A DNA stretch of 59,564 nt, the filler included, from Bipalium vagum (lineage: Eukaryota): assembly GCA_037834085.1 (NCBI GenBank). It is 3 parts of 3 records of this genome, joined end to end, with 100 filler letters (N's around TTAATTAATTAA, not from the genome) between each part and the next. Parts side by side here need not be neighbours in the genome. Positions count along the whole stretch, not along the records: positions 21,285 to 38,343 come from JBBMKC010080490.1; 2 more parts are not named here. One strand, written 5' to 3'. Shown here piece by piece: positions 1,625 through 43,079 of this stretch. Below the pieces are notes generated by a model. It saw only the letters and a list, made by a program, of their open reading frames with translations. It made no database searches and was not told the DNA's origin. Every line of letters begins with the position of its first letter. The first letter of the stretch is position 1. A program made the translations under genes and the position numbers.

Positions 1625-3326
1625 TCAGGAATTGATTCTCGCTTTTATCCAATCCACAATGTCCTTGCTGAACTTTTTATTAATCCCAAAAGCCTCGTTT
1701 CTCAATTGGTGTTTCCCGTTCAAATACGTTATTAAAGTCTTATCTTGAACTGAGGCCTCCTTCACCAATTGTTGGCTACCCTCGATTTCACAAAGAACAT
1801 CTTTGTCGCCATGTCCAATGATGAAAGGTGTGCTTAATTCTCGGAAAAAGGCCTTTTTGTTTTCCACGGCATCGTAAAGAGTGATGATTGTTTTCGCTGG
1901 GATAGAGTCGTGAATTCTCAAATTGTCACTTTTAACTTTTTCCAAATATTCAAGGTCCGAGCTGAAATCGTCACAATTCAACTTGAGCATTGGAAATTGA
2001 GGATAAATTAGATTAATGAATTTCCCCATATACACCGTTACCCGGCTGAGTTTTGAAGGGAACGTCAATAATGGAGCTTCTAAGCACAACCCAGCAAAAA
2101 AATTTCTCCTCTGCAACGTAGCGCAAACCGATATCAGACCTCCCATGGAATGTCCGTAAATAAATATTGAAACTTCCTCCAATGTTTTCACAACACTATC
2201 AATGTCCAGAAGAACATCGCGAACTAAAGAGTCAAAGTCAGAAACTATTCCACGCTCTCCTTCACTCAATCCGTGTCCTAAACGACGCAGTTTATTAAAT
2301 TTTAATTAAATGTCTTTCATGTGCAAAATATTTGGAATTAATAAATATTAAATAATTTTTAATTATTTGACGTTTAATTTTTTTATTATTAATTATTAAA
2401 TATTTTATATTATTTTAAATTAAGGGATTTTCAAATTAATAATAATATTATTAATGTTATAATAATTATTACTCCCTCCGTCCGGAATTATCGTATACAT
2501 TTCAACAAAAATCGTAGATTATCGTGATTATAAAAATAAATTGGCAACTGTCATTACATTCTTATAGTAAATACTCATGAAATATTTGACGTAAGCAATA
2601 CCATTCTTAGTTAAAAACTTAACGCTCAAACATCAGTGTTTCTTGAGAAAAATAAAATTAATACCGCTGCAAGACGAATTTGGAAAATTCTGAAGGAAAT
2701 TTGTTACACTTAGAAAGAAGAGATTCCAAATATAAACAATTAACCAAAAAACAACGTCAAGGTATATTAGAAAAATTATTACATCAGATGAAAGAGATTA
2801 TGCTAAAACACGGTGCAATCAATGAAGTTGCTACTGCGTTTCGAGTTTCCAGGCTAACAGTTAAAGCCAAATCAAATTTCGAGTGAAAAAAATCATTCTT
2901 ATTTAATTAAAATATTTCAAATAAAGTTAATATAATATACTTGTCATGTACATTTTTTGATTTATTTTATTTTTTCGCAAATGTATACCATATTTCCGGA
3001 CGGAGGGAGTATTTATTATTATATTATCATTTATTATTTTGTTTAATTTTACTATTAACGATATTTAATAATTATATTTTTAATTTGATAATAAATGAAA
3101 TCATAACTTTTGATCAATACAGAACAAAATACGATCAGAATTATTTTATCTTTAGACACTATTTATATATTAGACACAAAATTTATTATTTCAAATATTT
3201 ACAATTGCGTTTACCTCACAACTTCCATGAATAAAATGAAAAAATTCAAATTCTTTATTAAATTTCTTTTATAATTTATTGATATTTTTGAGAAAATTTT
3301 TAATCTTTCAAAGTTAAATATAATAA

Positions 3327-12118: not shown

Positions 12119-15100
12119 ATGAATAAATTTTCTACCTTTCTAAATAAGGTACAAATGAGTTCACCGTACAACGATGAAAATTTTCAGTTAATCACATCAT
12201 TGGTACAAAATTTTAAATTGTTGATAGTTTTTAATTTTGTTTAAGGAATTTTATAACAATGACATGTTTACAAATCAAAGAATCTTCATTTACAACGAAA
12301 ACTCTTTAAAGAACGAAAAACTTCAGAATATTTTATTAAAACTAAAAGCTGTCAGTTAATAAGAAAATGGATAAATTATTCATTACTTTGTTTAGGATGT
12401 CATTCATTCTTTTGATGATAAAGTTAATTATGTAATTACTTCTAATAAAAAGGTGAAAGACGAAATAAACTATTTTAATGAAGATTCTAAACATGAAAAA
12501 AATAACCTAAAGGTCAATGACACCAGTTCTAAGCCCAAAGTGAGCTATGTTGGACTTTCTATTAGAAACAGAATATGTAGTATTGCAGCGGAATCTAAAA
12601 ATGCTACCAATAAATTTGGATTAAATCAGGTAGTTATTCGTACTCTATTAATTTTACAAATTCATTATAAATATCAACATTTAAGAATTATCTTTTAGTC
12701 AGCAAATACGAGGATAGACAATCAATCAGGGTTTTTGCAGAAAGTGAAGAAATTGGGAATCAAAGTTTTGAGTATAAATGGTATATAATCTTCTCGATAT
12801 CGATTTGCAATTTTAATCTCAATATAGATGTTTGGAAATGGCTGCTCGAAAATTATCCGGTACTAATTATGGTAGGTTCATACTTGGTTTAACTTTATGT
12901 TACTGCTTTTGTAAATTTTATTTCATAATGTTTGAGCTTTGTCTAAATTTCACTGATGAGGATTCTGTAGGGATAATGATTAAATAAGTCAAGTTTCATT
13001 CTTCGAGATTTTTTCTTGAGAGCAATGTCAAGGTCTTTGGAAATATCATTGTACATTTCTTTTGCATTTTTAATGGGTGATTCTTCCAGTATAAATATTT
13101 CTAAAATCTTTCGATTTCGAATCAATTTCTTCAATAAACTTTATTTGAAATGATTTGTTGAATTTATTTTAAAATAAGGAAGGTGAAACTACTGAAGAAA
13201 ATCATTCCCTCGATGTTAAAAAAAAGATTCAAGCAATCAAAACACCCGCCATAAAGATCTTTGATAAACAAGGTCGATATAAACCTGAGTATAAGTCACA
13301 GACCAATTTGAATCGAGAAATGTGGGAGGAAACAAGTGGCTGTAATACCAGCAAAGATGAAGAATCAGGAGAAAAGGAACTGGAAATGAAAAACGACAGT
13401 TGTGTGTCCATATCAAAGAAATCTGTACAAGTCAGTTTAACTAAAGGACAAAACAAATCTGTGAAGGCACCAAAGGTGATGAATGAAGGTTATTGCGAAT
13501 GCTGTGATAGCAAATTCATGGATATCAAAACGGTAAGTTATCATACGAAATTAGCATATAATCGTTAATTTTGGAAAATCCTTACCCAGCATTTAGAGTC
13601 ATTTCAGCACCAAAAATTCGCTGATGACGCGGCTAATTTTGTCAGTATTGATGAAGTGTTGAAAGACTTTGTGAATTTCGAATCATTCTATAAAACTAGA
13701 ATGATGAAGCAGACTGTCCTGGAACGCCGGGCAAGTGTGAGACTCATTAAACAACTGTGAGAATTGTTAGAGATTATTTATATATTTCGTTAATGTTTAT
13801 GTAGATCCGTGAACGATTTCAAGAACGAGCAGCAAGTCTTAGAAATTAAAAAAAACGAAATAAAGATTGATGGAATCGTTGAGAAAGATTCTGTGGCTGG
13901 TTTGAGGTCCGTAAAATCGGAAAATAATAAAGACATTCTATCAAATTCTGTATCCAAAGTGAAAAGAAAAAAATTAGAAAGTTTATTGGAATCTAGTCAG
14001 GAAAACAGTGGAACCTTGCGTATCATGGAAAATGGAAGTGTCGCAAAATCAATGGAGATAGATCTACTGAAGAAATTTGAGGTGGATTTGGAAAATCAAA
14101 AGAAACAGCTTAGTCACGATTGGGGAAAGATGAGGTTGAAACCGATATCTTTGACTTTGAAAAAGTGTTACTTTGGGAAAATTGAAGAAATAATTTTTGA
14201 AGAGCAGTGTACAGAAATCGAGAGTGTACCTCATCAATACCCCCAGTCATCGTTAGAGTGGGGTCCAAATTTCGCTCAAGCAACAATAAGTTATCAATTG
14301 TACAGAGCTTGTATGGAAATATCATCCATAGAATTTCAGACTGTGCCTCTCTTGGAGCCAGTGTTATTTGTTCAAGCTAAAGAGTCCTTGTGTCCCATGA
14401 CAACTGGTCTGATCCACGCCGATAAAGTTTTAAGTACTCAACCACTCGTCTATTGCAGCAGCCTTGAGATATTTCAGGATCTCAGTGAAAAATGTTATTC
14501 ACTTGTCGTAGCTGATCCGATTTATCTTTCGTCGAAAACCTGCTCAAATAATGTCTTTCAAGCTCCAGTGGTAACTGTGGGGTTTCCGATAAAAGATCCA
14601 GATTCGCTTTCACGAATAACGCCGATGGAAGACGAATTTTATTTTGAAAAAGCTTTTTTGTCAACAGTTACTCTAGAACATCAACATCATTTAATCACGA
14701 CAGTTCAGTCGTCCCATCAACAGGAAATCCATCAATCAGAAGTCGCTTCCCAGTCAGATCTTCTCAATGATATCAACGAAAAAGATAACGAAAGTTTTTT
14801 TAACGAACGTCATTCTTCGTTGGATGATTCGATAGGTAGTTCTATAGAACGCTTGTCGCTGCGAAATTTTCGTTTTCTTCCAGATTCAATTCCCGATGAT
14901 ATCGAAGTTCCATTGTCTCCCGTTGTGTCCAATTCCCGATATTACGCTTTCTCCCCGCACATTCTTCGTTCAATCGATAAAAAATGTGAAGAAAACGACG
15001 ATAACAATTTTACTCCATCATACAACTATTCTCCCGATCGTTACAAGACTCATTTCACAGACTTCAATTATGATTTTTTGACCACCTCACCATCCAACAG

Positions 15101-15761
15101 TCACGTTAAAGATATTATCTTAAACAATTCCGATTTCAATTCACCGATAGAGCCGAAATCCAATTGTAATACATCTCTCTCGAAAATCTCTCCAAACGCG
15201 ATTGTTCCTGTTCCGCAGGCTCCTTCCAATCAGTTCGATGAAACCGACGACGATTTCATTATCGATCTAAGATATTTCCTGAACTCTTCTAATATCGGTT
15301 CAACGAATTGTGCATTTAATGTACTATCCAATCAAAAGACACCGTCACAGAAAATTGGTCATAAGCTAATTTCCATTGATTCCATTGTTCAGAATCGATT
15401 TCAAGATCGATTTAATGTCAATTTAAATTCATTGCGAGAAGTTACCAATCACAGTAAAATCGATATGAAGCCACCACGTCGAATCGGAAAAAATTTAAAA
15501 CGAACCAGACAGGAAATTGAGGCAGACGTTTCCGATTATCCAATCAATTCTTCGAAGAGAAAGAAATTAGACAAAAACTTGACATTTCCATCACCACTGC
15601 CGCCACCTGCACCTTCGCCAAAAGTTAAGCGGCAATCAAATATAACTAAAAAATGTGGTGATGAGCTTTCGCCCTCCATCAGACAAAGTCGACCGTTCAG
15701 ACAGGCAAAATCGATTGCTCGCCAATCAATACAAATCGCAACAGATTTCTTTTTCAATTAA
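12119..15761 (+). CDS. DBF4: DBF4/ASK-like Cdc7 kinase activator, 8 coding exons, ~1008 aa
   Basis: Exons 12119-12202, 12246-12350, 12396-12629, 12699-12780, 12828-12871, 13179-13532, 13590-13756, 13805-15761; all GT-AG and phase-consistent (3027 nt). Motif N/BRCT-like (FTNQRIFIY...LKADVIHSFDDKVNYVITS...KKLGIKVLSI), motif M (IKTPAIKIFDKQGRYKPEY), motif C zinc finger (GYCECCDSKFMDIKT|HLESFQHQKFADD). Confidence 0.9.
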
Positions 15762-21284: not shown

Positions 21285-23550
21285 CTGTTTATAGCTGATA
21301 ATGACCGGAAACAAACAATGCTACTGGATCCACTACGCATTGAAAACTCAGCTGAACAGGTTGAATTCCATGGCAAACTTAATCACATGATCAACAAACT
21401 CAACAATATCCTTGATTTACCGGGATATATTGAACTGGCCATGATCGAAGAGAGAACACATCCACTCCAAACCAATACATACGATTGAGGAGTATTTGTT
21501 TGCCAGTATGCTAGAGACTATGTCTTCTCATGGGGCGAGACCATCTTTAGAAATCCGGAAGTAATGGAAATCAGAAACATAATTTCTCTGGCCCCACACA
21601 ACAACAACAACGCAGGCAAAACTGATAAAACCAATCAATCAATCCAAAGGAAAAAACCAGCAACTAACACTGGAACCAACGCAGGAACACAAATCCAAGC
21701 ATCACCAGCTATGAAATATGAGCAGAATTCAACATCCGAAATACTTGAAAACATTATCGATCGGATGAAACTGGGTAAATTAAACCCCACACAAGCAATA
21801 GACACTATAAAAGGCGCTTTTATCCAACAAAAGGAGCCAAAGATAAAAATACTCCGACTGGAAGAGAATCGATCCAGACTTTAAATTTCTGCTATGCTTG
21901 TACAACCAGATTCTGACATCTCACGAAATTCCAGAACAATGGCGATTATTTAAAACGCTCCTACTAATCAAGCCCAACAAACTTGACCAATCCGGCGACA
22001 TATCATCGTGGAGACCCATTGCTATTCTGGATACATCATACCGTATCTTTGCCAGAATTCTGAACTACAGACTCTTGGAATGAATCAAAATGGGCAACTT
22101 ATTGTCATCATCCCAAAAAGGCATCTTACACTCGGACGGCTGCAGTGAACACAATACTGCCATCAATTGTCTCACTGAAATTGTACATAGGCAGAATTAT
22201 AAAAAGGCAAGAAAAAAATGCAAATCTCCATCTATGCTTCCTCGATCTTGCCGATGCCTTCGGATCAGTCCCTCATGAGCTCATATGGAGAACTTTGGAA
22301 GAAATGGGACTGCAAAAAGACACGATCAGTCTTATACAAAATCTCTACCAGAATAACAGAACTTTCTACATGTGCAATCATATATGCACAGATCAAATCA
22401 ATATCAGAAAGGGCGTGAAACAAGGCTGCCCACTTTCGATGACACTATTCTGTCTGTCTATCGATTTCATTTTTCGGAAAATTGACAGTCTCAACTCTGG
22501 CTTTCCAATCGATAGCTATCAAATCTCGGCACTCTCATACGCTGATGATATTGTATTGATCTCAAATAACTTTGAAAACATCAACAAAATTATGGAAACC
22601 GTTGAAGACCTTGCAAATTGGGCAAATCTGGAATTTCGCTCCAACAAATGCGGTTACTATAGTATTTTGGAGCAATCAACGCCGACCTTGATGATTAAGA
22701 ATCAAGCAATACCTGTAATTGCTGGAAATACAAGGTATGAATACTTGGGAGTTCCATTTGGCGCAGAAAAAAGGCAAAATATTGATGGAATTCTAAACGA
22801 AAATAAAGAAAACTTCTCAAAGACGTGCCAAAGCCTACTTACACCTGCTCACCTACTTCTCACTGCAACAAAGAGGGCAGAATCAAAAGACACAATGATC
22901 TGATCAAAGAATTAATGCAGAGCCTCGGTAACAAGCCATATGACATCAACGTGGACAAGAAATGGAGCGAGATCAATATAAACCAAAGACCTGACCTGAT
23001 CATCACCATCAAGGAAAAAAAGCAAATATATCTCATCGATATCAAGTCTCCATACGATAAAAAGATCAACTTCGACCAGGCCAAAGAAGCTAACAAGGCA
23101 AAATATGAAACTCTGTGTCAGAAAATCGAAATGGACACCAAATTCACTACTTCTCTTGATGTCATCTCGGTTAAAGCATTAGGATCATGGAATCCAGAAA
23201 ATGACGCCCTACTCAAAAAACTTGGCTTTAACAAAGGCGAGATAAAGCAATTTGCCATCAATTCCATTCGATCAGCAATTAGAAATTCTTACGAAATCTA
23301 CCGGAAACGTCTCCAACAACGGAAAGTGATTCAGAGTGATTCGATACTTTAAAAAATTCTAATTGCTTAAAATTGTATTTGTGGCACAACAACAATAATA
23401 TTCAGCAGACAGCGAGGCTATTCCGTCAAAAGCATACAAACAAGAGTGCAGCAACTTCTTAAAAATAAGGGCATGTGGACCAAATATTAATATTTTTTGT
23501 GCATGGTCATATGTAGTATATATTTTTTAGTGTTTTCCATTTTAATAAAT
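21285..23550 (+). mobile_element. NeSL-clade (R2-group) non-LTR retrotransposon, copy 1, defective: Ulp1 protease + RT + restriction-like endonuclease
   Basis: Ulp1: LLDPL...QTNTYD*GVFVC. RT: WRPIAI, SQKG, FLDLADAFGSV, GVKQGCPLS, YADD, YEYLG. Endonuclease: HC...RHND, RPDL, IDIK, KY, LGSW. Stop at 23352, AATAAA near 23543. Contains stops, frameshifts and two internal deletions. Confidence 0.92.
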
Positions 23551-23744
23551 TATTAAAATTGCATTTAATAATGAATTACGTAAAAAATTATTTTAGAAAT
23601 TGAATTTACGACTAAAACACGAAACTTTTTATTTGAGTCTATTTCAATGGCCAGGTACTGTAATACTAGACGTTTCATATTAAAATTTTTGTTTATAGCT
23701 TGTTACAATAATTGTGACAAAGTTTTTATTGCGATTCGTATATA

Positions 23745-24235
23745 TATCAATATATCAATAATATAATATAATACTGGCTTGGAACCAAAGGCTCACAAGA
23801 CTAGCCTCGATCTTAAATAATATTACATTCCTTTTATTAAACAGGCGTGTCTTGTTAGACAAGACAGTTTGTAATAAATAAGTAACCTGAGGATTTAACT
23901 AAGGTTTTAAATTCCTATTCCTTAAACTTTTTATTTTATTTGTTCTTACTTCAAACACTAAGTAGGGTGGTGAAGTATATTTTTTATTCTTATATTGAGG
24001 ACCTCTGAGCCTAAGAGCGAGAGGATTTTTCTAAATAATAATTTTAATTAATAAAATCACTTTAAATCCTTTAAATCAGTCAAAATCGATATCACGTATT
24101 TGTCACTTTATTTTGAAATCGTTTTCTCAGTTATCTAACCGAACACAAAATAATCTATCTTCACTCGTTAAGACCTAAGCATCATAATAAGCTCCACTTT
24201 TAACACCAATCAACCCCACTTTTAGGATCTTAACA
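23745..24235 (+). repeat. LTR-end-like repeat, diverged copy of 26600-26929
   Basis: Shared blocks ATATCAATAATATAATAT, GAACCAAAGG, TCGATCTTAA, CAGGCGTGT, AATCGATATCA, TCTAACCGAACACA, GTTAAGACCTAAG; both copies end in TTAACA. Confidence 0.8.
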
Positions 24236-24413
24236 TTTCTATTTCTATGAAAATCATTATATTATATTATCTGGAATATTTCGATGATTTTTAATATGAG
24301 CATTGTAACAACAGTTACAATTATTTATTTTTGAATAAAAATCAGTAATTAGTTTTATTTGAAAACATTTATGACATACTTTGTTTTTATTTGAAAATTA
24401 AAATTTTTATTAT

Positions 24414-26929
24414 TGTGGAAACTACGGCAAATAGTACAGGTTCAAATCAAGCGCCACCAGTCCCAACCAGCCCGGAGCAGTCAAAAAACTGACATTCAAA
24501 CATTATTTATTCTGACATTATTTGTGATTTAATTCTTGACAATTTTCCCTGACATTATTGATAAATTCTCCTTTTTTTATATATGTATAGCATACTTGGC
24601 ATTGTATTGTTCTTTTAATTTTATTTTTTATTTGAAATAATTAATAATCAAAAATATATGTATCAATCGATTTTGACTGATTTAAGTAAAATATTAAAAA
24701 TAAAACGATAATTAAATAATAATAAATAATAAACAAAAGGAACTGAAATAGCATAATAAAGGTATAGTAATGACATGTATGAATATTACTATGAATAAAT
24801 AAGATGTATTAGTATTGGTAGCGATCATATTTATTTATTATTATTATCAATTATATTTTATCAATTATATTTAAAAGGAAAATAATAATATGGTAACATT
24901 AAGTTACCATTAATAGAAAACCAATAAGAATTATCAAAAAAATGAAAAAATGATAAAAATAGAAAAAAGAAGGATAAGAGAAAATTATATTAAGAAACAG
25001 AAACTTACCAATTTTGAAAAAGAAGGAATAAAGAAGCATATAAAAGACGACAGAAATTATAAGAACTCAGACAAAAAATTTTTACTAACAGCTACGAAAC
25101 CAGTTCATACGCGTAAACAAAGATAAAATTTTTATAAGCATACAAAACCAGATTCAACCAGTTCCAACGTTCAAACGAGATCAATCACGATTCCAGATAA
25201 ACTACAGTTAATCACTAATCAAATTTCAGTCCTACAACATTCAGACTATAACCGCGTCCAGAACCATACGAAGTCCTACACAATTCAAAGTACTGTGAAG
25301 ACTCATACAAACAGTACAAGCAACAGGTCCAACCTCCGTTCCAACCAACCTGGAGCAGTCTAAAAGCTCAAATCAAGCGCCACCAGTAACAACTAGCCCA
25401 GATCAATCCAAAAATTGACATCCTAACATTATTTACTTGTGATCTAATTCGTGACAACTTTTAATTTTCTTAATGAATTCCTCTTTCTTCTATATATGTA
25501 CTTGATATTATTTGTAATTGTATTTTATTTTTTAATGATTAATAATCAAAAATATATATTGTATACATTGTAATTGTATTTTATTGATATTGTAAATCGA
25601 TTTTGACTGATTAAATTAATTAATATAAAATAATAAATAATAAAAAAAATTAAACAATAATAAATAATAGACAAAAGGAAATGACATAGTATAGTAATGA
25701 CATGTATAAATATTAATATAACATGTATTAGTATTAGTAGCAATCATTTTTATTTATTTATAAATTATATTTTAAAGAAAAATAATAATATGGTAACATC
25801 AATATACAATTAATAGAAAAATACTAAAAAATGATAAAAAAATTATATTAAGAAGCAGAGGCTTACCATTCTTAAAAAAGAAGGGAAATAAAGAGGTATG
25901 TAGAGACAACAGGAATTATAAGAGACGCACAACAAATTTTTAACAACAGCAACATCGAGTTTTTACGTGCAGATAAAACAAAAATTTCTTGAAAAGACGA
26001 AGCATAGTTCACCAGTTCCAACAAAATCCTACGACAGTTAAAAAGAATTCTACAAGGACCCATACCAACCAGCAAGTTGTCCACTATAAAAATGTTGGAC
26101 AGTCAACCAAATAAAAGCTCTACAAAACAGAAAAAAAAGTAACGAAAAATAAGCAGCAAAAGAAAAGGCATCACCGTTCCAGTAAAACGTAGAACAACTT
26201 GAATTCGTACTCAAAATCATCAGTACCATTCTTTCAAAAGCCACGATCCTTGCTATTCGACGACAAAATAGTCTCCGATTAGAAGAAACCTATTTCAACC
26301 AAATTTTTATGCCCAAAGTTTTTGTTTTAAGAAAAGTAAATTCATTTTGTTTTGACTTGATACATTCATGTATCAAAGTTTAATAAAAAGTATTAAAAGT
26401 TCAATTTTTATATTTAAAATTTACTCAAGTGTCTAAGCCTTAGTTTAATTTTATAATTGATTTGAATCGTAATTTACCGTAAAAAATATAATTCAAATTT
26501 ATTTTGTAATTGTTAAGTGTATTTTGCTTTTACATTTAAGTAACTTGATGCAAGAAATTTGTGAAAAAGTTTCGAAGTCTATTTACATATTCATATTTAA
26601 ATATCAATAATATAATATATAACTAGCGTAGAACCAAAGGTTCTCAAGATTAGGAATCGATCTTAAGTAAACCATATACCTGTATATTTTTTCTTAATTC
26701 CTAATTAAATCAGGCGTGTATAATTATAATTAATAAAATTAATCAGAATCGATATCATATGTATTAATAAACTTTATTTTGAACCAAAAAAAAGTATTAA
26801 AAGATAAATCGTTTTCTTAGTCAATTTAAATAACTCTAACCGAACACATCCATAAGCAACCTTCAACCGTTAAGACCTAAGTATTTCACCTTTAATATCA
26901 ACTTATTCCATCATCTTAGGACCTTAACA
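24414..26929 (+). mobile_element. Putative long (~2.5 kb) LTR-like unit
   Basis: Tandem units, then TATAAAAA at 26085, donor-like GTAAAT at 26336, terminal hairpin and TAACA end at 26929. The 5' boundary is uncertain. Confidence 0.4.
24442..26060 (+). repeat. Diverged tandem duplication, ~926-bp period
   Basis: TCAAATCAAGCGCCACCAGT at 24442 and 25368; colinear blocks (AATCGATTTTGACTGATT, ATAGTAATGACATGTAT, AATATGGTAACAT) in both units. Confidence 0.9.
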
Positions 26930-27260
26930 GTATTACAGTTCATTCAAGTGCCAACCAGATTCACTACACCCTATAAAAGCTTTAACCATCCAACAAAAAA
27001 GAAGAAAAGCAGCAAATTTCAAGCAAAACTCAGAGCAACACAAGTACAAGATTTACAGCTATAATCAGAGCTATACGCTAAAAAATTACGATCAGTGACA
27101 ATAAAGCCCATTAGACTACGAAACAGAACCCTGCCAGTTTGCTTCAGCTAATTTTATAAGCCCAAAGTTTTCTAAAGTTTATTTTTAACTCTTCAGCTTA
27201 GAAAGTGAAGAAATTTCAAAAACCGGAAATTTGGAACAAAAGAAAGAAGCCCAAATATTT

Positions 27261-27608
27261 ATGGAAGAAGCCCAAGTGGATAAGTCAAATGAAGATCGAA
27301 AAAATCGGTCAGCGTGTGGTTTTTGCCCCTGGAAAAGGGGATTTTACCACATGCAAACTGTGGTAACTCTGTTCCCTTATTGCAGTTTGCCTTCCAGTAT
27401 CGAAGAGACCGTACCACATTTCCCAGAAGAAGATCAGCCAGCTTTCCAGCGACCTGGTTTCCCTACTATGACGCCTCTGACTCCTGCTCAGGCCTACCCT
27501 TTGTTACGAAGCTCTTATTATGTTCCCGACAAATGCGAGATTCTCTTAATGCCCCATTTATTTGGTGGAAACTCTCCAATGATGGGTGTCATTGGTGCTG
27601 CCCCGTGA
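27261..27608 (+). CDS. Orphan ~115-aa ORF, probably repeat-associated
   Basis: GC-enriched open frame from ATG 27261 with a CGFCPWKRGFYH...C segment and a Pro-rich tail. TATAAAAG at 26972 upstream, AATAAA near 27755 downstream. No recognisable family. Confidence 0.3.
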   Translation: MEEAQVDKSNEDRKNRSACGFCPWKRGFYHMQTVVTLFPYCSLPSSIEETVPHFPEEDQPAFQRPGFPTMTPLTPAQAYPLLRSSYYVPDKCEILLMPHLFGGNSPMMGVIGAAP

Positions 27609-29589
27609 CCGACGGGTATGAAAAAACGGCCACAAGTAGGTTGTTTTATATATTTTCTTGTCCCCGACGCGATCCCGGTTTTAATTATCTTTTAATAACT
27701 TTGAAAAATTAAAATTTGAGGAAATATCCCAAATTAAATCAACACCATTTATTTTAATAAATTATTATAATTTACCGGGTTGCAATAATTTAAACAAAAA
27801 TATTAGTTTGTCACCATGTAATTATTTTATAATAAATTTTTAAATTAACTTTAGGATTAATGTTATTATTCTGTTCACAACAATTTATACAAATATTAAT
27901 TATAACTTAAGCCTTTGTTTCTTAAGTAAATCTATTCTTAATAATTTTATTAAAATTAAAGTTGAAAATATGAACTGTGACTCAAGTACTACTAATAAAA
28001 ATTCTTATGATAAAATTGTCTATTTTACATCTACAAATTTTAATGTAAATACATTACACAACAAATTTAAAAATTCTAACTGTGTAGACATTAAATAAAC
28101 ATTTTCACATATAAATAATTCTTCATCTTCAATGGGATTAGGTTTATCTTCAAATTCTTAATTACTTAACCACAACAAAAAGCAATTTTTAACAATTGCA
28201 AATCAAAACAACGTATCCATATTACTTTGATTTATTTATGTTAAGTAGGTTTAATGATTTAATATTGAAAATTAAATATTATTGGGCGCTTACGGGCAAG
28301 ATCTCATTTTCTGAACTGGTCCTATTTTTGATTTTGAGAAGGAGGTATGTCACAAAAGTGGAGAAAATTTGTAAATGCTCCCTACTTTCATCGTAATATT
28401 GATCTGAATGAAGACAGCATATTGATTCAATAAAAATACCGCAGACAAAAGGCACCCAATAAATTTTAATTGTGTCAAAGTAATGAAAAAAGATTTTTGT
28501 TTTTGAACATTTTCATGATGAATTCAAGTAAGTTTTTTTACAGTAGAAAATAAAAGTTTAGAATTTTCAGTTAACGAACAAGCCTTTCAGCTAAGTACAA
28601 TTCAGATGTCAAAGCCGGATACAATTTATTTTTCTGTTGACTGGTCAAAATACATCAAAAGAATTGACAGCAAAATTTTGACAGTTATTCACATTTTCGG
28701 ACAAATAACAGTGAATATCGATATCAGTAAAGAGAATGATTAGAGAAAGTCTAAATGTCTGGTTGAGTGATATCATTGCAATCTACTCCTGTCAAATCTA
28801 TTAGATATGAATCAGAAGAGATAGGCGTAGGCATTATTTGTCATTATGAAGTACTGGGTACTTGTTACTCAATCAATTTCAATCTTGTTCTTGATGAAAT
28901 TGGTAAAAATCTGTTTTTTTCTATAGGTTTCTCGAATTCATTCGAGATTTTATCATGCTAATTATTTTTCTCAATATCGCTTTGGCTTAATTTTAACTTT
29001 CACTCATGATAATTTTAATTAAAATTGACTTAAAATAAACTCGTCACTCCAATAATACTAGTTCTTCGGTAGGATTATTTATTTTTGTTTTTAATATTTT
29101 CTTATTCCTCTCTTTTCTGTTTACAATTTACAAATTGCCCCAAGGCCCTTTCATAGATTACTATTTATTATTATTTTTTTTAATAATTTTTTATTACTTA
29201 ATTTTCATTGATAAAGAAATAAAGTATTAAAAAGGTCTTAGTTTATTTTATTGCTACTTTTATCAATTTGAATTTACATTTTTTTATTCTTTATCCTATT
29301 ATCACATATAGTTCCGAATTTACGCTCAATAAATTCTTCTGATATCAGTGAGTCTTGTTAAGTTACCTAAAAGGCAATATCGATAGTTTTAGCCTCACTT
29401 TCTTATTTAACTTTTAGGAACTTAATAAAATTATTCAATTTAATAGATTTCACGGTATTTTTTTTTAAAGTCAGTTTTTTATTAAAGTTTTTAATTTGGT
29501 TAGCACATAACTTTTTTCCAACTTTTTAAAAATTACAAATAATTCCGAATGTGTGTGATAGTGCATGTGTTTTGATTATCCACCCAAGA

Positions 29590-30055
29590 TTCTGATAGTC
29601 CACTAATACGCAAAGACAAATGGACTAATTGGGGCTATGAAGATCGTTTACAATAAGCATTTATTTGGTCAATAGACATGATTAGAGATTGGAAAAAACT
29701 TCAGGATTACCGAGGAGAAATAGAACCGATTTTTTTCAAGAAGGTTGATAAACTCGTTAGAAAATCATTTTCCCACCAGCTGCTAGAACAGTTCAAGAAA
29801 CAGACACTGATCAAATGAAATAAAACAAACGGATCAGTAATGAAATGAAATTACGGAAACTAACCACAATGAAGGAATTTGAAAACTTAATCGTAGTGTT
29901 TGACGAAATCGAAAATTCTACCCTAACACATTGAAATAGTAAGAAGCACGAATACCATAAACGTAAGTCGCTCTCGATTTTAAAATATGAGAACCGAACA
30001 GCTGACTGCCATAACCGTAGCTGCATCGGTCACATGGCTAATCGGCTGTAAAGAC
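29590..30055 (+). mobile_element. Degenerate LTR-retrotransposon gag fragment
   Basis: Interrupted frame ending in CHNRSCIGHMANR, a decayed CX2CX4HX4C zinc knuckle. Confidence 0.5.
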
Positions 30056-32479
30056 TAAGTAAAACAGGTTATCAGATTTCCATCTTGCTTTTTGAAATAA
30101 GTGCGATTGCATATTATATTGTAGTAAATTTTGCTGGCTCTCCAGTCAGAGATGAAAAGAAGAATTTGAAGAAATGATTGTGATAATCCCATATCCAACA
30201 GAGTCTTTGTAATCCGTAATCTTATTAGCCAGGACTGGATCATTGAAACTAAGGTTTTAAATATTATATAATTGAATTATTCAGCTTATAAAAAGGCTAA
30301 ATTTGTCACTTCATGCTTGATACAATTTTGAACCTAAACTTTACAAAAAGGTCCTGTGAATTTTTCTTTATTTTTTAAAAGTTAAATAATAATCACAAAC
30401 AATATGATAATACCCTTTAAGGTTAGAATCGAGCACTAACATCATCATAATTTTTATGACTTTAAAGATATATTAAAGTTCAGAAGCAGAGATAAATTAT
30501 TTTGAAATTCATAATAAATGCTGGACTCACTTATTCTTAAATCAGGAGAAAAATTACTAATAATTTACTATTCTCAATACAATCTGCCAAAATAATTTAG
30601 TTTTATAATTAAATATTTTAAATCCCTTAATAAATTATCATATTAAAAATATTATTAATCATGAAAATCACGTTAACTCTTCGTATTTGTAAAAGTTACT
30701 AATACTTAAAATAAATCTAAATAAAATTTAATCTAATAAAATTTACTTATTTTAGATTATTTATTTAATGAATTAGATTATTTTAAATTTTACTTTATAT
30801 TACGATATGTGACGAATTCGACAATGTTTTGAATATGACTGCTAATAAAAATAATCAAAACTTACCAAATCTAAATATAGACGGTGCCAATATATCTAAT
30901 GATCTTCAGACTTTCATCGCAAAAGTGTCAGAATTACAAATCCGTAATACTCAATTAGAAAAAAAATCAATTAATAAACAACAATGATCAATTGACAAAG
31001 AACAATAATTAATTAACAAACAAAAATGAAATATTAGTATATAATTGCACAATAATACGAGATGAATCAAATGATTGACAACGAACATGATACTTTCTTA
31101 GAAAAATTAAGAAATGAAAGTATGCGTTTTACCAATTTATTAAACAGAGAGCTGTGGGACGAAAAGATAAGATAGATTAAGATAATCTTACAGTTGTTAC
31201 GAATATGTTACCATAGATCAGCATCACATTTAATATTCATAATAATATTTTAAAGACCAACAAATTTTCTATAGTTTTTTATGTGACTTGAAAAATTCTT
31301 TTAACTACCACTGAAATCATATTGAAACAACATAGAAATCTCTGAATTTACTAATCAAGCCCAGAAAAAGACCAAAATATTCAGTAAAAGACAATTTACT
31401 GGAATTTTACAGTTGAATTTTAAACCAGGTGTTTGTTCCATTTTGCATAATCATATATATTAAAAAAAATTGACAAAAAATATCCATTCTATCTATTAAT
31501 GTTAATTCATTTATTTTATCATTTATAACAGTTAATAATTGTGTAATCATAATAATTTAATGTTATTGAAAAACGTTTATAATTAAAATTTAATAATAAT
31601 GTAAATGACCTTCAAAAATTGCCAATCTACAATCCATTTTACAAAAAATTTATAATGTATATCAGGATAATGTGCTAACAGATCGTGTCAAAAATGGTTT
31701 TCGAAATACAGTGCTATAGATTTTAATGTATGCTTATCGCACTGCTTCGATCACAATAGCCAGATAAAAACGAAAATTTAAGACAAATTAGGTGTCTTAT
31801 ATTTTGTATTGAATAAAGCAATCTAGTATTATGTCTGATATATTAACATTTTATAACAGTTTAGATTGGATACAACAAAAAGACACTGAAATTTATCACA
31901 TTAATTTTAATGTTATCACTGGAAATGAAAGACAAATAAGATTGGAATCGTTTCGAGACCCGTGAGCATTCAGAGAAGCTATTATCTAAAAATTTGTTTA
32001 AATATAATGAAATTCTTGCTTTAGCCGATTTATTTCTTGCAAATGAAATTTCTAAAAACAGAAATCATTTGAAGAGAAATTATTAATAACTATATTCTAA
32101 AAGTTGCTCACATAATTAGCCCTGACATGATTAAATGACATTAGGTGTTCTAAAATCATATTAATCCCAAAATAGAAGATAAAGTTAAGGATATCGCTAA
32201 ACAAATGCAAGATAGTTTTAAATCATTTATCGGGTTTAATCGTAGAACGGAAATCCTGACATATGCAGCACTAGCGTACTTTTAATATACATAAGTCACT
32301 TCAAATTAAATCCTAACTGAAGAAAATGGAATGTTGTTTTAATTAATATTTATCAGCTCGTTATGAATAATAAATCAATATCTGAAATGTATAGCTATTG
32401 TTTAGTTTCATTATATTTTTAGATAAATCCTGATTTCTTTTGATGACAGGATTTTTATTAATAAATTTTTTTTCAAGTG

Positions 32480-33000
32480 TCAAAAATACAACTGCCGCTC
32501 TACGAAAGTATAAGTAGAATGTGTGTGTTCCAGTGTGTTCCTCATTCTTTGTAACAATCTGAGGCTCTTTCTCTACAAATTCACTATGCTACCAGAACTA
32601 AAATCATCTCATGCTTCTCAACGAACGCATTTAAGCTTCTCAACAATCAGGAAATTTTGAATTAAATCTTTTAGAACGATCAATTTCATTTTCATGTGAA
32701 TAAAAAAACAAATTGTGACACTTGGTTTGCATAAAACACAAGAATACCACACTTCTGTATTCACAGAAAAGGAAGGAATGGGTGGGCGTCTCCAAATATT
32801 ACCACCTTTATATATTATGAAACCGTCAATGGCCAGCGTTATCTTTCAATGATTAAAGAGCATGTTTTACAGAATTTGAGGAAGAATGGGAAACTTCTTG
32901 TCGTTGTTTTCATGCAGGATGCCTGTACATAACTTCTGTAATGTTAAAGAGCTCTTATTACAAAAATTTGTCAAAGACCGGGTTATCAAGAGACACATTC
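32480..33000 (+). mobile_element. DD41D-like transposase fragment
   Basis: YYETVNGQRYLSMIKEHVLQNL...VVFMQDA. Confidence 0.6.
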
Positions 33001-33031
33001 CACAATTCTCCTTTTTACCCTGAAGTAAATG

Positions 33032-34783
33032 CAGAGTGTTTGAGATAAATCGGGAATATTTTCAAACTAATATTATATAAATCTCTTCATAAATCACATT
33101 TGATCTTTACTTGTTTAAGTAAGCTAATATATCAAAAAATCAATAGATCAAAATTAAATTTTAAAGTTTTAGATGTCTTCGGAATACGACAGAAGACTAG
33201 CAATGCTCGAATCGCTTCGCGCCGGAAAAACACCCCCAACAAATTATCAATTGGTTTGGTTACGAAAGAAAACAGTATAAAACCTCGCTAAAAGATTTAA
33301 GGAATAACATGAAACGAATAATATAAATGCAAAAAAAAGCCACATCAAAGAGGAGTTAAATTTTCATGGCCGATTTAAAAAAGAAAATTGATGGTTCTAA
33401 AAGTATGGCTGATCTTGCTAAGGAAATGAACGTGGCCAAGACAATATTTAGTGTACTAATAAAGTAAGAGATGCTATAAATCTTATGTTCTCCGACTTCA
33501 ACAACTGTTAACACAGAAATTGAAGTCAAGTCGAAAACTAAACTCACATAAATACATATAATATGACAGTGCTTGGCAATTAAGGTTCTTCTCCGATGAA
33601 AAATACTTTGTTCAAGACAGAAAAATTAATCGGCAAAATGAACGCTGGATCTGCCAATATGTTTATGCATGTTCCTATGACCATGCATCCTTTTGATTAT
33701 TATCTGATGTGTGTAGTTGAGGAAGAAGTCAATTCAAAAAGCTCATCTCATTATCAAGTCATTATAGGATGCTGTGATAAACATAATGGCACATTTGGAT
33801 AGGGAAGAGGTAAAACTAGCATGTAGCAGGTTTCGATCCAGACTCGAAGCGGTTGTTGTACCTAATAATTTAATTGTGAATAATAATACTTTGAATAATA
33901 TAATTGTGAACTTTGATAAAGTTGTTTCAAAATTGTTATTTATTTATATATAATTATTATTAAGTGTGCAAGTCGAAAATGACGATTTTATAGAAAATCA
34001 ATCACGATTCAAAAAGAAGGAAAATGGATACCATATGAATTAAATGAGTAAAACATATAAAAGCAAAAAACCACGTGTGGAATACTGACGGATAAGCACT
34101 CAAAAAAAAAATCGTTTCTGCATCGTATCATCAGGAGGGGCGGAAAATGTATTTAATTCCAGAATCTAAAACGTCGAAAATCTTGATGCGACTCAGGTTA
34201 ACCGTCATCATCGATATCAAAATATTCACGTTAAGAAAGCATTACTGACCACACCGTTGGATTAGAAGAATGTGTTGTACTACGACTTCTTGCAACCTGG
34301 TCAGACCATTACTGGTGATGGTTATCAACAAAAATTGCTTATATTACGCGATTGCAAGAAAAACGACCAGAACATACAAAAAGACACGCGAATTTCCCAT
34401 GCTCGTTCCCATGTTTCAAAACAGGTTAGGAAACCTTTGGATAAATATAGTTGGCATATCTTACTCCACCCACCGTATTCGTCAGACATTGCTCCATCTT
34501 ATTATTACTTGTTCAGATCGATGACGCATTGCCTCTCCAAATTGCGTTTCAAAAAATTCGAGGATTTCAAATATTGGATTGATGAGTGGATTTTTTTGAT
34601 GATATTCATAAATTACCAAAAAATGTACCAAAATTGTAGATATTGATGGAAATATATAGCTTGGATAAAAAATTTTTTTTTGATACAATAAATGATTGTT
34701 GCACTCTTAAAAAATCGTAATTGTACTCTATGTACATTGTTTCATTTGTTGTAAAATATTCCGGATTTATCTCAAACATTCTG
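33032..34783 (+). mobile_element. maT/DD37D transposon remnant with both TIRs
   Basis: 31-bp TIRs CAGA(G/A)TGTTTGAGATAAATC(G/C)GGAATATTTT. Decayed ORF from 33173: MSSEYDRRLAMLESLRAGK..., FFSDEKYFVQDRKINRQNERW, PFDYY, ACSRFRSRLEAVV. Confidence 0.85.
33960..34740 (+). mobile_element. Mariner remnant nested in the 3' end of the maT element
   Basis: GKWIPYELN, FLHRII, YYDFLQPGQTITGDGYQQ, HPPYSSDIAPSYYYLFRSM; degenerate mariner-type ends. Confidence 0.85.
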
Positions 34784-35169
34784 TGCATCTAATTCTTATG
34801 CAATCAATGATTCATCTTGAGAATCAGCTTAAGACTAAAGAATTGATTTCCTGTATAAAACTAGCAGCGAAAAGCATTTCACGCACCCATTGAAGACTTG
34901 GTTGTTCGGCCTGAAGTCTGCGGTGACAGAAAATTTTGGACATATCGATCATTTAATATTGATATTAATATATTCCTGAGTTGATTATAACATTTACATT
35001 AATTGCACAATAGCCTGTCTATCTTTTATTGATAATAATTTTTTTGTTATTTTGAAGTTACTTATGAAACACTCTGTATATACTTAATTACTGGCAATTA
35101 TAAGATTTTTAAAGAGTTTTTATGCATGGAAGATATAAAAAACTTCTCTAGAGAATGTCTGGAATTTAT

Positions 35170-35520
35170 TTAACATTGCGTAGCTTGCTTTCGATGTCAG
35201 AATTAATTAGTATCTGCAAATAGCACTCTAATGAATGAAGTTATTAAAAAAGTCAATTTTATTAGAAATCATGCTTTGAATCATTACTAATTTATGTTTT
35301 GTTAGATAGATTAGGAATGGATTACCATTAAAAGATTTTTCAATGTAAGACATATTTTTAATGAAAAAATGAAGTCATTATGTTACCTGGTTAACAAACA
35401 TTTGAAAGTGTCAATTATGTCCAAAGATGCACACATTTATAGACTAGATATCAAATTACTACATGATAAGATCGAAAGCGCTAAAAGAATTCTGAGAAAT
35501 ATACTTACTTACGTCAACAA
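35170..35520 (+). mobile_element. hAT (Buster/SPIN-like) transposase fragment
   Basis: MNEVIKKVNFIRNHALNHY*F matches the VVKxVNFIRxxxLNHRQF signature. Confidence 0.6.
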
Positions 35521-36718
35521 ATTGAAGACCGAACAAAACTAACTGTATATTATTATTGTTAGTTGAAATAATAACAGGTCCTTTAGATTAATAAGAACTT
35601 TTAAGATAATACCTAGAATTTGCTCTCGAGGATAATAGGAAACTCCTCGATTGACAGAAAAATAAATTCGAGATTGTAAGACTCAATAGAGACTCAAATA
35701 ATGAATGATTGAAAAATTGGCGCATCACCAAATAATTTAATTTTAATTATTAATAGTATGGAAATAAATAAATAAAAATTAATTCCCAAAATTTAAAAAA
35801 ATTTCATGTAGACATCAGATATCATTACAACACTTCAAAAAATGAAGATAGGTGTCTTAGATGTGCGCAAGGCAAAAATAGAAAAACAATTCATAAAGGA
35901 ACTTTTTTAGTCTTTTCTGGATGACAAAAATTACTAATTAGAAGACATCGAATTTTTTCTACTTTGAATGAGCAATGTCCTAGTGACCACAGTTACAGAA
36001 CTATCTGAGATAAATAAAGAAACTATAATGATTGTAAAATACACGCGAAACTTGGTCCTGAAAATCTAATGGCACATGAAAGTTTTTTCAAAAAAATTCA
36101 ACAAAGGTAATGTCGACAACAAGTGCTAATGAGGTCAAACAAAGGCTAATGACTCAGAAGATGACTCAACAAAGCAGGAAACTGCAGAGCCAATCAGAAT
36201 CGAGTATGACAGCGGACAATTTGGATATGAAAATGAATTTTCTGGATAGATGAAGAAGATTTTTTTGCAATCCGAGGTATTTCAGTCTTTTGTTGACGAA
36301 CTTTTCAGGAACTTTTACGAAATATGCCCAAATGAAATGGAGCTGTCAACAAAGAAGACAATTTCCTCAGAAATACCAAAAAAGTTCTCAGATTTATGCC
36401 AAGAAAACTCTTCAAATGCACATTTAATGTCCCGATATGTGGCAGAGAACCAGATTATGAGCCAAAAGAAGAGCTTTTATGGAGATAAGAAGAAAAATGC
36501 CCCAAAACAGCTGAAAACAAGGGCAATCCCTCGCAAAAATTTTTAAGGTTCCTGAGAAAACGGCCAAAGAAAATTTGAAAAATGGGAACGAAAATGTGAA
36601 CTTACACTTTTTCAAGACCGCTAAAAAGGGATGAATTTGAAAGCCTTCTCAGAATACTTCCTGAGATGAGGGAGCTGAGGAAAATTACGAAATATTAAGA
36701 AAAAAGGAAAAAAATAAA

Positions 36719-38343
36719 TCAGTTGGCAAGGAAACCATTGGCTTCTATTTATAGCTGACAATGACCGGAAACAAACAATGCTACTGGATCCATTACACGT
36801 TGAAAACTCAGCTGAACAGATAGAATTCCATGGCAAACTTAATCAAATGATCAACAAACTTAACAATATCCTTGACTTACCGGGATATATTGAACTGGCC
36901 ATGATCGAAGAGAGAACACATCCACTCCAAACCAATACATACGATTGTGGAGTATTTGTTTGCCAATATGCTAGAGACTATGTCTTCTCATGGGGCGAGA
37001 CCATCTTTAGGAATCCGGAAGTAATGGAAATCAGAAACATAATTTCTCTGGCACCACACAACAATCCCGACGTTTCCAAAATCAGAAATGATACTACGTG
37101 TACCCCACACAACAACATCGGTAGGGATTCTTCTTTATCTTTACTTCTTTTAGATCGACAGAATGCGCCGTTCCGAAACGCATTGTCCAATAATCATCAA
37201 AATTTTGATTGCATCCCACCTTCGACAAGGCGTCTGCCATTTTCTGATCTGAACATAGATTGTGGAAAGCTAAAACAATCAACTTTAAAATTTGATCTGA
37301 CCATCGCAAGGAATCTTCTGGCCAATATAGAAAAACAGATGATATACGGTCATTCTAGTCCTACCGAGGCCATTGATATGATCCAACAATTTCTCAAAAG
37401 AGACGATGAGCCACGCATCAAATCTCCACTTTCCACCTTTCGAAAGAATAATCGAATAGACTTTTCTATTAGAGACAGATTCAATTCAAATCCAAAGAAG
37501 GCCTACGACGAAATCACGGGAATTTCAAAACCAGAGAATTCTCCAAACAAGACCGAAATTGAACATCACTTTGGATCCAATGCCAGTAATTTTTCAATTA
37601 CAGATCATATGGTGAATTTGCCCAGATCAGAGGAAACAATGACATTGATCCCAATCACTGCAGAAGAAATTGACTTAGCTTTTAAGTCGGGCACAAACTC
37701 AGCCCCAGGATCCGATGCAATAGAGTATTCCCATTGGAAATTAATGGATCCAAAATTTGAATTTTTATCCTTTTTTTTCAACTTCATCATCAATACTGGA
37801 ACTATACCTGAGCAGTGGAGAACATTCAAAACACTGCTCATCATAAAACCGAACAAATTGGATCAGGCAATGGAACTTTCATCTTGGCGTCCTATAGCCA
37901 TTCTTGATACTTCCTACAGAATCTTTACGCGTGTCATAAACCATCGATTACTTGAATGGATCAAGACCGGAAATCTACTTTCGAGAGCACAAAAAGGTAT
38001 TTTACATTCTGATGGATGTAGTGAGCACAATACAATGATTATGAGCCTGACCGAACTTGTGAAGAGACAGAACTATAAAAAGACCAAGAAAAAATCAGAT
38101 TTACACTTCTGTTTCCTGGATTTAGCTGATGCGTTCGGATCAATTCCACACAAGCTTTTGTGGATTACTTTGAAATCGATGGGGCTACAAATTGAAACAA
38201 TTGAGCTGATTAAAAACTTGTACAAGAATAGCAGAACCATATACATGTGCAACCACATTTGTACGGATAATATAGAACTCAAAAAGCTGCTAGCCAATTA
38301 TCCCGAAATAGGCGAATATATACTTGAAAATTCACATGAAAAC
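36719..38343 (+). mobile_element. NeSL-clade non-LTR retrotransposon, copy 2: Ulp1 protease + N-terminal RT, cut by gap
   Basis: Open frame with Ulp1 triad GNHW / LLDPL / QTNTYDCG, RT domain 0 (NSAPGSDAIEY), WRPIAI, AQKG, FLDLADAFGSI. The frame leaves RT homology just before the expected GVKQG. Sequence 36050-36718 may be its degraded 5' part. Confidence 0.92.
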
Positions 38344-40793: not shown

Positions 40794-40880
40794 GTTAGTT
40801 GAAAATTAATCGGAGTTACCGGGATTCGAACTCGGGACCCATCACATACACCTGGACTTCTCTGACCGCTAAGCTACGGT
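40794..40880 (-). mobile_element. tRNA-derived SINE head or tRNA pseudogene (tRNA-Ala-like), copy 1
   Basis: Minus strand A box TAGCTTAGCGG and B box GAGTTCGAATCC, then CTCCGATTAATTTTCAACTAAC shared with copy 2. The cloverleaf is broken. Confidence 0.7.
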
Positions 40881-42097: not shown

Positions 42098-43015
42098 TTA
42101 GGTTGTCCAGTATGAAATTGCGGATTTTCAATTTTTTTTAAAAGTCAAAGACAGCTTGTAAATAAATTTTATTAATTAAAATATTTCCCATCGCTTTTGA
42201 CACACTGTTGCCATCGGGATAATAAATTTTTAATTCTTTTTTGGTAAAACTCTGAACTTCTTAAATCGAAAAATTGAGCGACGTCCTTTTCGATGGCAGC
42301 ATAGTCCTGGAAAATTTTATTAGCTAAAAATGCATCCATATGCTTGAACAGGTGGTAATCTGTAGGTGATAGATCTGGGGAATAAGCTGGATGAGACAAA
42401 ACGTTGTACTGTAAGTCATGTAATTTTTGTAAGGTCACTTTAGAAACATGTGGTCTTGCATTATCCTGAAGAAAGATCGGCCCCTTTCGGTTTACAAGAC
42501 CTGGTTTTTTTAATCAGCTTTGTGTACATAGCCTCAATTTCTTGACAGTATGACTGTGCAGTAATCGTTTCACCTGATTTCAAGAAATTGTAATGTATTA
42601 AGCCATCTTCAGACCACCACACAGTTATCATAGTCTTCTTGGGGTCAAGGCTTGGTTTAGACATGGTTTTCGGCTTCACATCAGCATTTAACCATTGCGC
42701 TGATCGTCTACGATTGTTGTACACAATCCACTTTTCATCGCATGTTATAATACGAGACAAAAAGGGATCAATTTGGTTCCGATTTATTAATGACGAACAG
42801 ATTTGCAATCGATATTTTTTTTGATTTTTTGTTATATCATGGGGAATCCATGAATCAAGCTTCTTAACCTTACCAATCTCTTTTAGATGGTTGGAGATTG
42901 TTGATTTGGACACATTGAGAACTTGAGCATGTTCTCTCACATTTGTTCGAGTATTTTCTTCGACAACTGACTTCAATTGAGCTTCATTTAAGAGGGACTT
43001 GGTTCTTCCGGGGTC
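42098..43015 (-). mobile_element. Mariner (DD34D) element, 5'-truncated, one frameshift
   Basis: ORFs 42461-42976 and 42172-42438: WIPHDI, ITCDEKW, QDNARPH, HPAYSPDLSPTDYHLF. TIR TA|TTAGGTTGTCCAGTATGAAATTGCGG at 42098. Confidence 0.95.
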
Positions 43016-43079
43016 TTGGTTTTAGGGACTTTTTTGAATTAAAAATCATTTTGTGATGGAGGATATTGAAACTCCATTA

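Follow-up and report, generated by a model that had tools for sequence, protein, structure and literature searches.

A probable recombinant family of NeSL-like retrotransposons in Bipalium vagum and a conserved in-frame TGA in the Ulp1-like protease of its relatives

We analysed a stretch of 59,564 nucleotides (nt) from the Bipalium vagum assembly GCA_037834085.1 (hereafter the window), whose middle part, positions 21285-38343, is an entire contig (JBBMKC010080490.1; G000:C80490) bearing two copies of retrotransposons resembling the NeSL clade. The two copies share a nearly identical Ulp1-like protease next to reverse transcriptases (RTs) diverged to silent-site saturation. The protease-linker joint of copy 2 carries a 51-nt scar and is found again in a second contig, and related loci display further crossovers and an in-frame TGA within the protease. 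The account that we consider probable is that copy 2 represents a small recombinant NeSL-like family founded by a single crossover between two lineages, and that such elements would obtain their protease and RT by readthrough of a UGA-CUA signal. The chimera is a fresh case of a known process, recombination between families of long interspersed nuclear elements (LINEs); the stop inside the protease matters more, as it bears on what the Ulp1-like domain does in elements of the NeSL clade.

The two copies comprise the following parts (ORF, open reading frame):

Copy 1
21285..21605, + strand: Ulp1-like (C48) protease of type A, C-terminal two-thirds, starting at the contig end
21606..21847, + strand: native lineage-1 linker; the sister copy L004 retains a piece lost here
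21848..22857, + strand: lineage-1 RT, with IPEQWR at 21928 and YADD at 22538 (Pfam RVT_1, E 1e-24)
22858..23374, + strand: restriction-like endonuclease and short 3' end, with RPDL at 22987 and IDIKSP at 23035; ends 23352

Copy 2
36064..36723, + strand: 5' part of ORF1 of the same element group; L265-L268 carry matching sequence as ORF1
36724..37065, + strand: type A Ulp1-like protease, donor part of the chimera (Pfam Peptidase_C48, E 4.3e-7)
37015-37065, + strand: scar unit 1, the last 51 nt of the donor protease
37066..37116, + strand: scar unit 2, the recipient's own last 17 protease codons (PDVSKIRN...PHNN), in frame
37117..38268, + strand: lineage-2 linker and N-terminal part of the RT, with IPEQWR at 37804 and DLADAFG at 38119 (Pfam RVT_1, E 1.2e-11)

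One protease shared by two diverged reverse transcriptases

An earlier note on this DNA had counted about 14 differences in some 320 nt of protease, and the number is exactly 14, with 306 of 320 positions identical and no gaps (21285-21604 versus 36745-37064). Identity ends as abruptly as had been described, after CCACACAACAA (PHNN), where the last helix of the protease domain comes to its end. Beyond it the linkers are largely unalignable, as claimed, but a weak protein match of 46 amino acids at 35% remains. The RTs agree at 327 of 484 nt (68%; 21928-22411 versus 37804-38286) and at 66-70% of amino acids, so that the protein is indeed kept at saturated silent sites: by the Nei-Gojobori method the proportion of silent differences (pS) in the RT is 0.95 and 0.87, whereas the Ulp1 domain has a silent distance (dS) of 0.15 and a replacement distance (dN) of 0.016. 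The Ulp1 differences comprise nine silent changes, four replacements and one stop (Fisher p 4e-4, with the stop counted as a replacement). The excess of silent over replacement changes suggests that both families were active for a time after the crossover.

Relatives were gathered from the same genome, and separate Ulp1 and RT trees were computed from the 29 copies having both domains; the trees hold only own-genome copies, without named reference RTs, and L049 was kept among the 29 rows. The two trees conflict, as the note had proposed they might. In the Ulp1 tree copy 2 groups with copy 1 and L016 (support 95/98), and in the RT tree with L176 and L178 (support 100/99). Forcing copy 2 together with L176 and L178 on the Ulp1 data is rejected by the approximately unbiased (AU) test (p-AU 1.4e-42), as is forcing copy 2 with copy 1 and L016 on the RT data (p-AU 2.1e-5). 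Other families are mostly congruent between the trees. The linker and RT of copy 2 are likewise 87-89% identical to L176/L178, and 97.7% to L034.

Both copies in the window are broken. Copy 1 begins in the middle of the protease because its contig begins there; the note had each copy abutting an assembly gap, but the N blocks are filler joints between parts, and the copies adjoin contig ends. Its upstream sequence is supplied by L008, which overlaps the first bases of copy 1 by 77 nt at 100%. The protease of copy 1 is dead because its catalytic Cys codon is a stop (TGA at 21486-21488). There is also a private deletion of ~300 nt in the linker at 21847 (relative to L004), and the RT has a stop and frameshifts and skips to the endonuclease near 22857. 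Copy 1 thus has two internal deletions in addition to its frameshifts and the stop that replaces the catalytic Cys. In copy 2 the triad is intact (His 36736, Asp 36787, Cys 36946). At 36724 its ORF1 is fused, out of frame, to mid-protease sequence, with loose ends there, an internal deletion having taken out the zinc fingers, the TGA-CTA and the N-terminal third of the protease, and the copy ends inside the RT before the contig end. In L268 the same ORF1 runs on into a zinc finger, TGA-CTA and Ulp1. Copy 2 was also considered as a 5'-truncated insertion in an unrelated repeat; this was ruled out, the upstream sequence being ORF1 of the same element group.

The joint and its scar

The diverged 51-bp tandem repeat reported at the break of copy 2 is there, its units (37015-37065 and 37066-37116) matching at 31 of 51 positions. 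Unit 1 matches copy 1 at 49/51, and unit 2 matches the lineage-2 relatives L176, L178 and L078 at 38-40/51 and copy 1 at 33/51. The crossover was accordingly in frame but out of register, the end of the donor protease being joined 51 nt ahead of the recipient's own protease end, where the sequence is A-rich and offers 2-3 nt of microhomology. The note had placed an in-register recombination at the PHNN motif; the joint lies 51 nt out of register instead, and the repeat is its scar. As unit 2 is recipient sequence, the scar also gives the direction: the type A protease belongs to lineage 1 and came into lineage 2 from outside. At the corresponding protease/linker joint copy 1 carries four AAC codons after CAC.

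The same joint occurs in a second contig, L005 (C7225), at 94-95% identity. The two window copies lie 15.5 kb apart on one contig in the same orientation, a setting in which gene conversion or ectopic recombination between them after insertion could have produced the shared protease. The presence of the joint in L005, with differences of its own, largely refutes this; moreover, the protease of copy 1 resembles those of L008 and L016 (98.6-100%) more than that of copy 2 (95.3%), and the differences are mostly silent, unlike the decay of dead copies. We regard such a local exchange as very improbable.

An assembly chimera has to be weighed as well, for the 441-Mb short-read assembly is fragmented into 272,664 contigs and both copies lie at contig ends. 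We compared the joints with contigs from run X1, which were built by a different assembly method, possibly from the same reads as the assembly, and are not long reads. One X1 contig of 68 nt crosses the copy 2 joint with 34 nt on each side, and another of 349 nt bridges the copy 1 joint after PHNN with 34 nt on the shared side. Two alleles are present downstream of the copy 2 joint, and an in-frame joint with a diverged scar is not something that an assembler would invent. A chimeric assembly is therefore scarcely credible as the source of either joint. With the tree conflict, the second contig and the read-derived bridge, the note's central proposal of a recent recombinant between deeply diverged lineages stands.

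Extent of the exchange

The same note took the Ulp1 domain for an exchangeable cassette. The 3' breakpoint, however, is the only one in evidence, and the ORF1 tail and the N-terminal half of the protease are common to the contigs that neighbour the two families' copies. L084 terminates at the very base where L005 starts, a link resting on this adjacency and a few shared alleles, and L008 and L084 both carry ORF1 of type o1 with the protease N-half, at 93% over 413 nt. These abutting or overlapping contigs suggest that the whole 5' half (ORF1, zinc fingers and protease) is likely to have moved with one crossover. No family shows breakpoints on both flanks of the protease; in the scar family only the 3' one is seen, on contigs shorter than a whole element.

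Crossovers elsewhere in the group bear on how the protease moves. Two copies, L150 and L012, have ORF1 o1 joined in frame to a type B protease at a point ~48 nt upstream of the TGA, with 93% identity over 1231 nt and 64-71% thereafter. L158 changes type within the protease (88%/68% against 72%/88%). Jumps that are internal or break the frame occur often (copy 2 at 36724; L050; L176 and L049). Among these, L176:5112-5132 and L049:2119-2140 share a jump from the RT interior (LLR.QK) back to the second half of the protease (THPL), possibly a rearranged non-autonomous derivative, and L050 (- strand, ~1270-1740) has the RT thumb fused in frame to the ORF1 tail and TGA-CTA protease of another family. 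L049 resembles a second clean chimera in the trees (p-AU 4e-5) but is not counted as one, its protease being truncated and other sequence lying between protease and RT.

On the reading that the protease alone is a cassette, moved by two crossovers and favoured for evading silencing that depends on the small ubiquitin-like modifier (SUMO), one would point to spreading breakpoints at both domain borders (the 3' end in copy 2 and L005, the 5' side in L150 and L012) and to a SUMO-protease fold with an intact triad in copy 2. The two border breakpoints, however, sit in different families with none having both, ORF1 o1 flanks the type A protease in L008 as well as in L084, and the L158 crossover falls within the domain. 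Together with the evidence on selection and fold given below, this makes the cassette unlikely.

We therefore prefer the single crossover. It would have taken place in frame and out of register at the end of the protease domain, attaching the lineage-1 5' half, presumably with its ORF1, to a lineage-2 linker and RT. Ectopic recombination and template jumping by the RT are indistinguishable here as routes; the latter is probably to be favoured, and the R2 RT is described as jumping between templates in the part of the source consulted (PMC8857657). More generally, crossovers may arise along the whole element, with only in-frame ones near domain borders going on to spread.

Several points weigh against this reconstruction. 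The scar family is known from only two contigs (C80490 and C7225). L084 and L005 adjoin without overlap, and L084 groups weakly (73), with lineage 1, in the Ulp1 tree, so that a double crossover may have occurred instead of a single one. The bridging X1 contig has the L005 allele at 37061, and X1 may itself be the source of the assembly. Finally, the groups entered in the AU tests were partly named after the trees had been seen (the second of the two).

The chimera is nonetheless a clean and directional example of LINE families with saturated RT divergence swapping 5' halves that include an enzyme. Classification by RT only hides such mosaic elements.

A conserved in-frame TGA within the protease

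A TGA precedes the protease motif L-S/G-x-x-x-I-E in 63 of 73 distinct contexts from related loci and TGG in none; related copies share ancestry, so these counts are not independent. The other 10 rows are three open-frame ones with Tyr (L131 and L132; one misplaced), one TGT-CTA, two decayed and four extrapolated beyond the element. A genome-wide pattern search returned TGA in 37 places, and a looser TGG pattern none. The stop is invisible in the window because that region is missing from both window copies. It is followed by CTA in 55 of the 63 cases, against 49 of 365 codons at other Leu columns. The frame of the stop is open for at least 100 codons upstream in 23 of 50 copies, and the other two frames in 1 and 5. 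Five loci (L125, L127, L128, L129 and L130) have ORF1 (430-1159 codons present), a single TGA and an ORF2 of 1018-1144 codons.

By profile alignment the TGA column is residue 48 of chain 1euv_A, in our reading Trp448, a residue of the di-glycine tunnel. Just before the stop, the end of ORF1 shows a weak alignment to the part of SENP1 that precedes this Trp, and two Cys/His zinc fingers, weakly matching those of CTCF, are found in the ORF1 tail of related loci. The TGA column corresponds to the W in the WLND of Ulp1 and is the first of the NeSL/Ulp1 alignment in PMC4640811 supplement S5, where most members listed have W. Since the zinc fingers and the start of the protease lie in the ORF1 tail, the stop divides a unit that is a single chain in NeSL-1 and Utopia.

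In alphaviruses UGACUA serves as the type II readthrough context, as set out in the consulted part of PMC13517186. Together, the column, the codon and its context make programmed UGA-CUA readthrough in these elements very probable. Ribosomes would read through at the first Trp of the protease, inserting Trp and yielding protease plus RT. Selenocysteine at the stop was ruled out, the column being Trp rather than Cys.

Readthrough is not the only conceivable route to ORF2: UGA could be changed to UGG by A-to-I editing, translation could reinitiate or start internally, or UGA could be read generally as Trp. The last of these is ruled out: at other Trp columns of the same copies TGG is found 234 times and TGA 8 times among 261 codons, and TGA ends the ORF2 of L125 where L127 has TAA, which implies the standard code. 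Reinitiation has been proposed for other non-LTR (non-long-terminal-repeat) elements in the part of PMC5405496 that we draw on; here no ATG after the stop is in register with the conserved helix, and the enzyme would lose its zinc fingers as well as the protease start that ORF1 encodes. Editing would also account for the stop at the Trp column always being TGA, but the CTA bias suits decoding and no conserved duplex was found. All in all, we hold synthesis of ORF2 by any of these routes to be quite unlikely, and readthrough remains our preferred explanation.

The stop is not confined to this genome. We examined four of 80 metagenome loci (L184-L187), three of which extend to the protease: L184 (TGA-CTT) and L185 (TGA-CTAG) have the stop in the same column. 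At L186:2283-2288 an in-frame TGA-CAA immediately follows the second zinc finger and precedes the Trp column by 19 codons, a position that suggests an independent origin or shift of the leaky stop. The foreign P0007 and P0015 encode Trp at the stop column. L131 and L132 form a separate Ulp1 family with an open frame of at least 950 codons and offer a natural stop-free control.

Some of the evidence tells against readthrough in this form. Nine of the 63 rows with TGA belong to loci retrieved with a TGA-containing pattern. The column is Tyr in the L131/L132 family and Leu in P0012, so Trp is not strictly required. A conserved RNA structure 3' of the TGA was sought in 18 and in 21 sequences and gave no consensus fold, and a 7-bp helix chosen post hoc is paired in only 68% of cells. 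In single copies the sequence after the TGA sometimes folds well (z to -5.2) and sometimes does not.

The in-frame UGA-CUA at the first conserved Trp is retained in other organisms and among families whose proteins are 35-40% identical. At the stop, gene callers cut these proteins short, and database relatives begin just inside the protease. For the L125 protease region, a search of a 5.8-billion protein set gave no match among 948 candidates of 614-1955 amino acids. We found no paper on readthrough or recombination in NeSL, R5 or LIN elements in a literature search whose scope did not extend to the original NeSL-1 and R5 descriptions, Repbase entries and some supplements; in the main text of PMC4640811, on NeSL with Ulp1, the words 'stop codon' and 'read' are absent.

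Fold, selection and possible role of the protease

The protease of copy 2 has His, Asp at +17 and Q-x5-C, i.e. the triad and oxyanion Gln of C48, and an Ulp1-like profile match to 1euv (E 1.5e-8). A model of the read-through protease (predicted local distance difference test score 78) has Ulp1 as its best fold match (E 9.8e-9). The fold matches include Ulp1, SENP and DEN1, with SUMO, NEDD8 and ubiquitin proteases alike, and on the evidence of this model the match does not name the substrate. It suits NEDD8 proteases and deubiquitylases about equally, which tells against the cassette reading.

In a comparison by pairs rather than by sites, the dN/dS of Ulp1 has a median of 0.17 and a maximum of 0.31 in 15 pairs at pS 0.25-0.70, near the 0.13 of the RT in three pairs; across all pairs listed it is 0.10-0.43, similar to the RT. 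These ratios point to purifying selection on the protease. The note had suggested selection against SUMO-dependent silencing, but with dN/dS as low as in the RT nothing indicates an arms race.

A different role may be considered. Of 18 copies whose tail is intact, 17 have a small-small dipeptide (GA, AG or GG; e.g. GAG, FAG or FGG after hydrophobics) 102-111 residues upstream of the TGA and just N-terminal to the zinc fingers, as judged by a loose pattern chosen post hoc with no formal null. Two foreign relatives, P0016 and P0020, have two tandem Ulp1-like domains with LEGG or IGGG in the spacer, which fits Gly-Gly self-cleavage. SENP-like viral proteases cleave their own polyproteins after Gly-Gly, as given in the consulted part of PMC4584293. 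By this analogy we tentatively prefer processing of the element's own polyprotein over anti-SUMO activity, while rating it at somewhat below even chances; the protease would cut at the small-small motif before the zinc fingers. The conserved stop makes two questions directly testable: by what means these elements restrain their RT, and whether the protease acts on its own polyprotein or on host SUMO.

Other features of the window

The PD...D.K motif of copy 1 at 22987-23046, after a Cys/His knuckle, is what we take to be a restriction-like endonuclease; a Pfam search of this region gave no match. Exactly at the 3' end of copy 1 starts a multi-copy repeat of ~246 bp (23375-23620), recovered in 26 of 44 matches of a repeat search at 87-95% identity and also adjoining L153 and L167. 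The repeat could be a favoured insertion target or itself a non-autonomous element. Further downstream is a diverged tandem duplication (24442-25168 versus 25368-26022, 67% over 771 columns).

Elsewhere the window has a repeat pair (40794-40877 and 54461-54541, 80%) that is tRNA-like, a label given by eye, and, presumably, a mariner-like transposase fragment at 42461-43021 (- strand). Of two host-like ORFs, one of 226 codons at 1625-2305 (- strand) has GHSMGG and is by our assumption alpha/beta-hydrolase-like, and the other, of 655 codons, lies at 13794-15761 (+ strand).

Comparison with known systems

Several traits of the NeSL clade are present: a non-LTR RT (Pfam RVT_1 in both copies, YADD at 22538), an Ulp1-like protease and zinc fingers N-terminal to the RT, and what we take from its motif, in a region lacking a Pfam match, to be a C-terminal restriction-like endonuclease. 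A single uninterrupted ORF from zinc fingers to endonuclease was seen only in the L131/L132 family, with the TGA present in 63 of the 73 contexts. The same order of zinc fingers, Ulp1-like protease, RT and C-terminal restriction-like endonuclease is described for NeSL-1 of Caenorhabditis and Utopia-1_TSP in the part of PMC4640811 that we draw on. According to the same part of that source Utopia generally encodes one protein, whereas the Bipalium elements have an in-frame TGA at the W column; neither readthrough nor recombinant families are mentioned in it. The R5/LIN lineage of planarians is also named there (PMC4640811). If the host is a flatworm, this lineage is likely the nearest. R5 reportedly has a two-ORF layout.

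With regard to recombination, mouse L1 likewise exchanges 5' parts between co-existing families around a tree-like RT, and CR1/L2 elements show reticulate ORF1 evolution, as reported in the consulted parts of PMC3600994 and PMC4120745. Unlike in L1 and CR1/L2, here the RT partners are silent-site saturated, the exchanged part includes an enzyme domain and a 51-nt scar shows the direction.

With regard to the stop, the UGA-CUA hexanucleotide is that of alphavirus type II readthrough in the part of PMC13517186 consulted, but no shared downstream stem-loop was found here. In the Paramecium non-LTR Group 3, ORF1 and ORF2 lie in one frame across a single stop, and readthrough was proposed from sequence; those elements are of the APE type without a protease, whereas here the stop lies within the protease at a conserved Trp (PMC5405496, in the part seen). 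Adenain, vaccinia I7 and African swine fever virus S273R resemble the present protease in their Ulp1-like fold and are described, in the portion of PMC4584293 used, as cleaving after Gly-Gly-X in their own polyproteins; in the retrotransposons cleavage is only predicted from the small-small motif.

A broader and rather speculative possibility, which we put forward as doubtful, is that a widespread lineage of LINEs with restriction-like endonucleases has converged on the gammaretroviral gag-stop-protease-pol plan. Readthrough would then set the ratio of ORF1 to enzyme, with the inserted Trp building the substrate tunnel of the protease; the protease would cut itself out at Gly/Ala-Gly/Ala, releasing a zinc-finger-protease-RT-endonuclease protein, and recombination would reshuffle ORF1, protease and RT with the switch kept.

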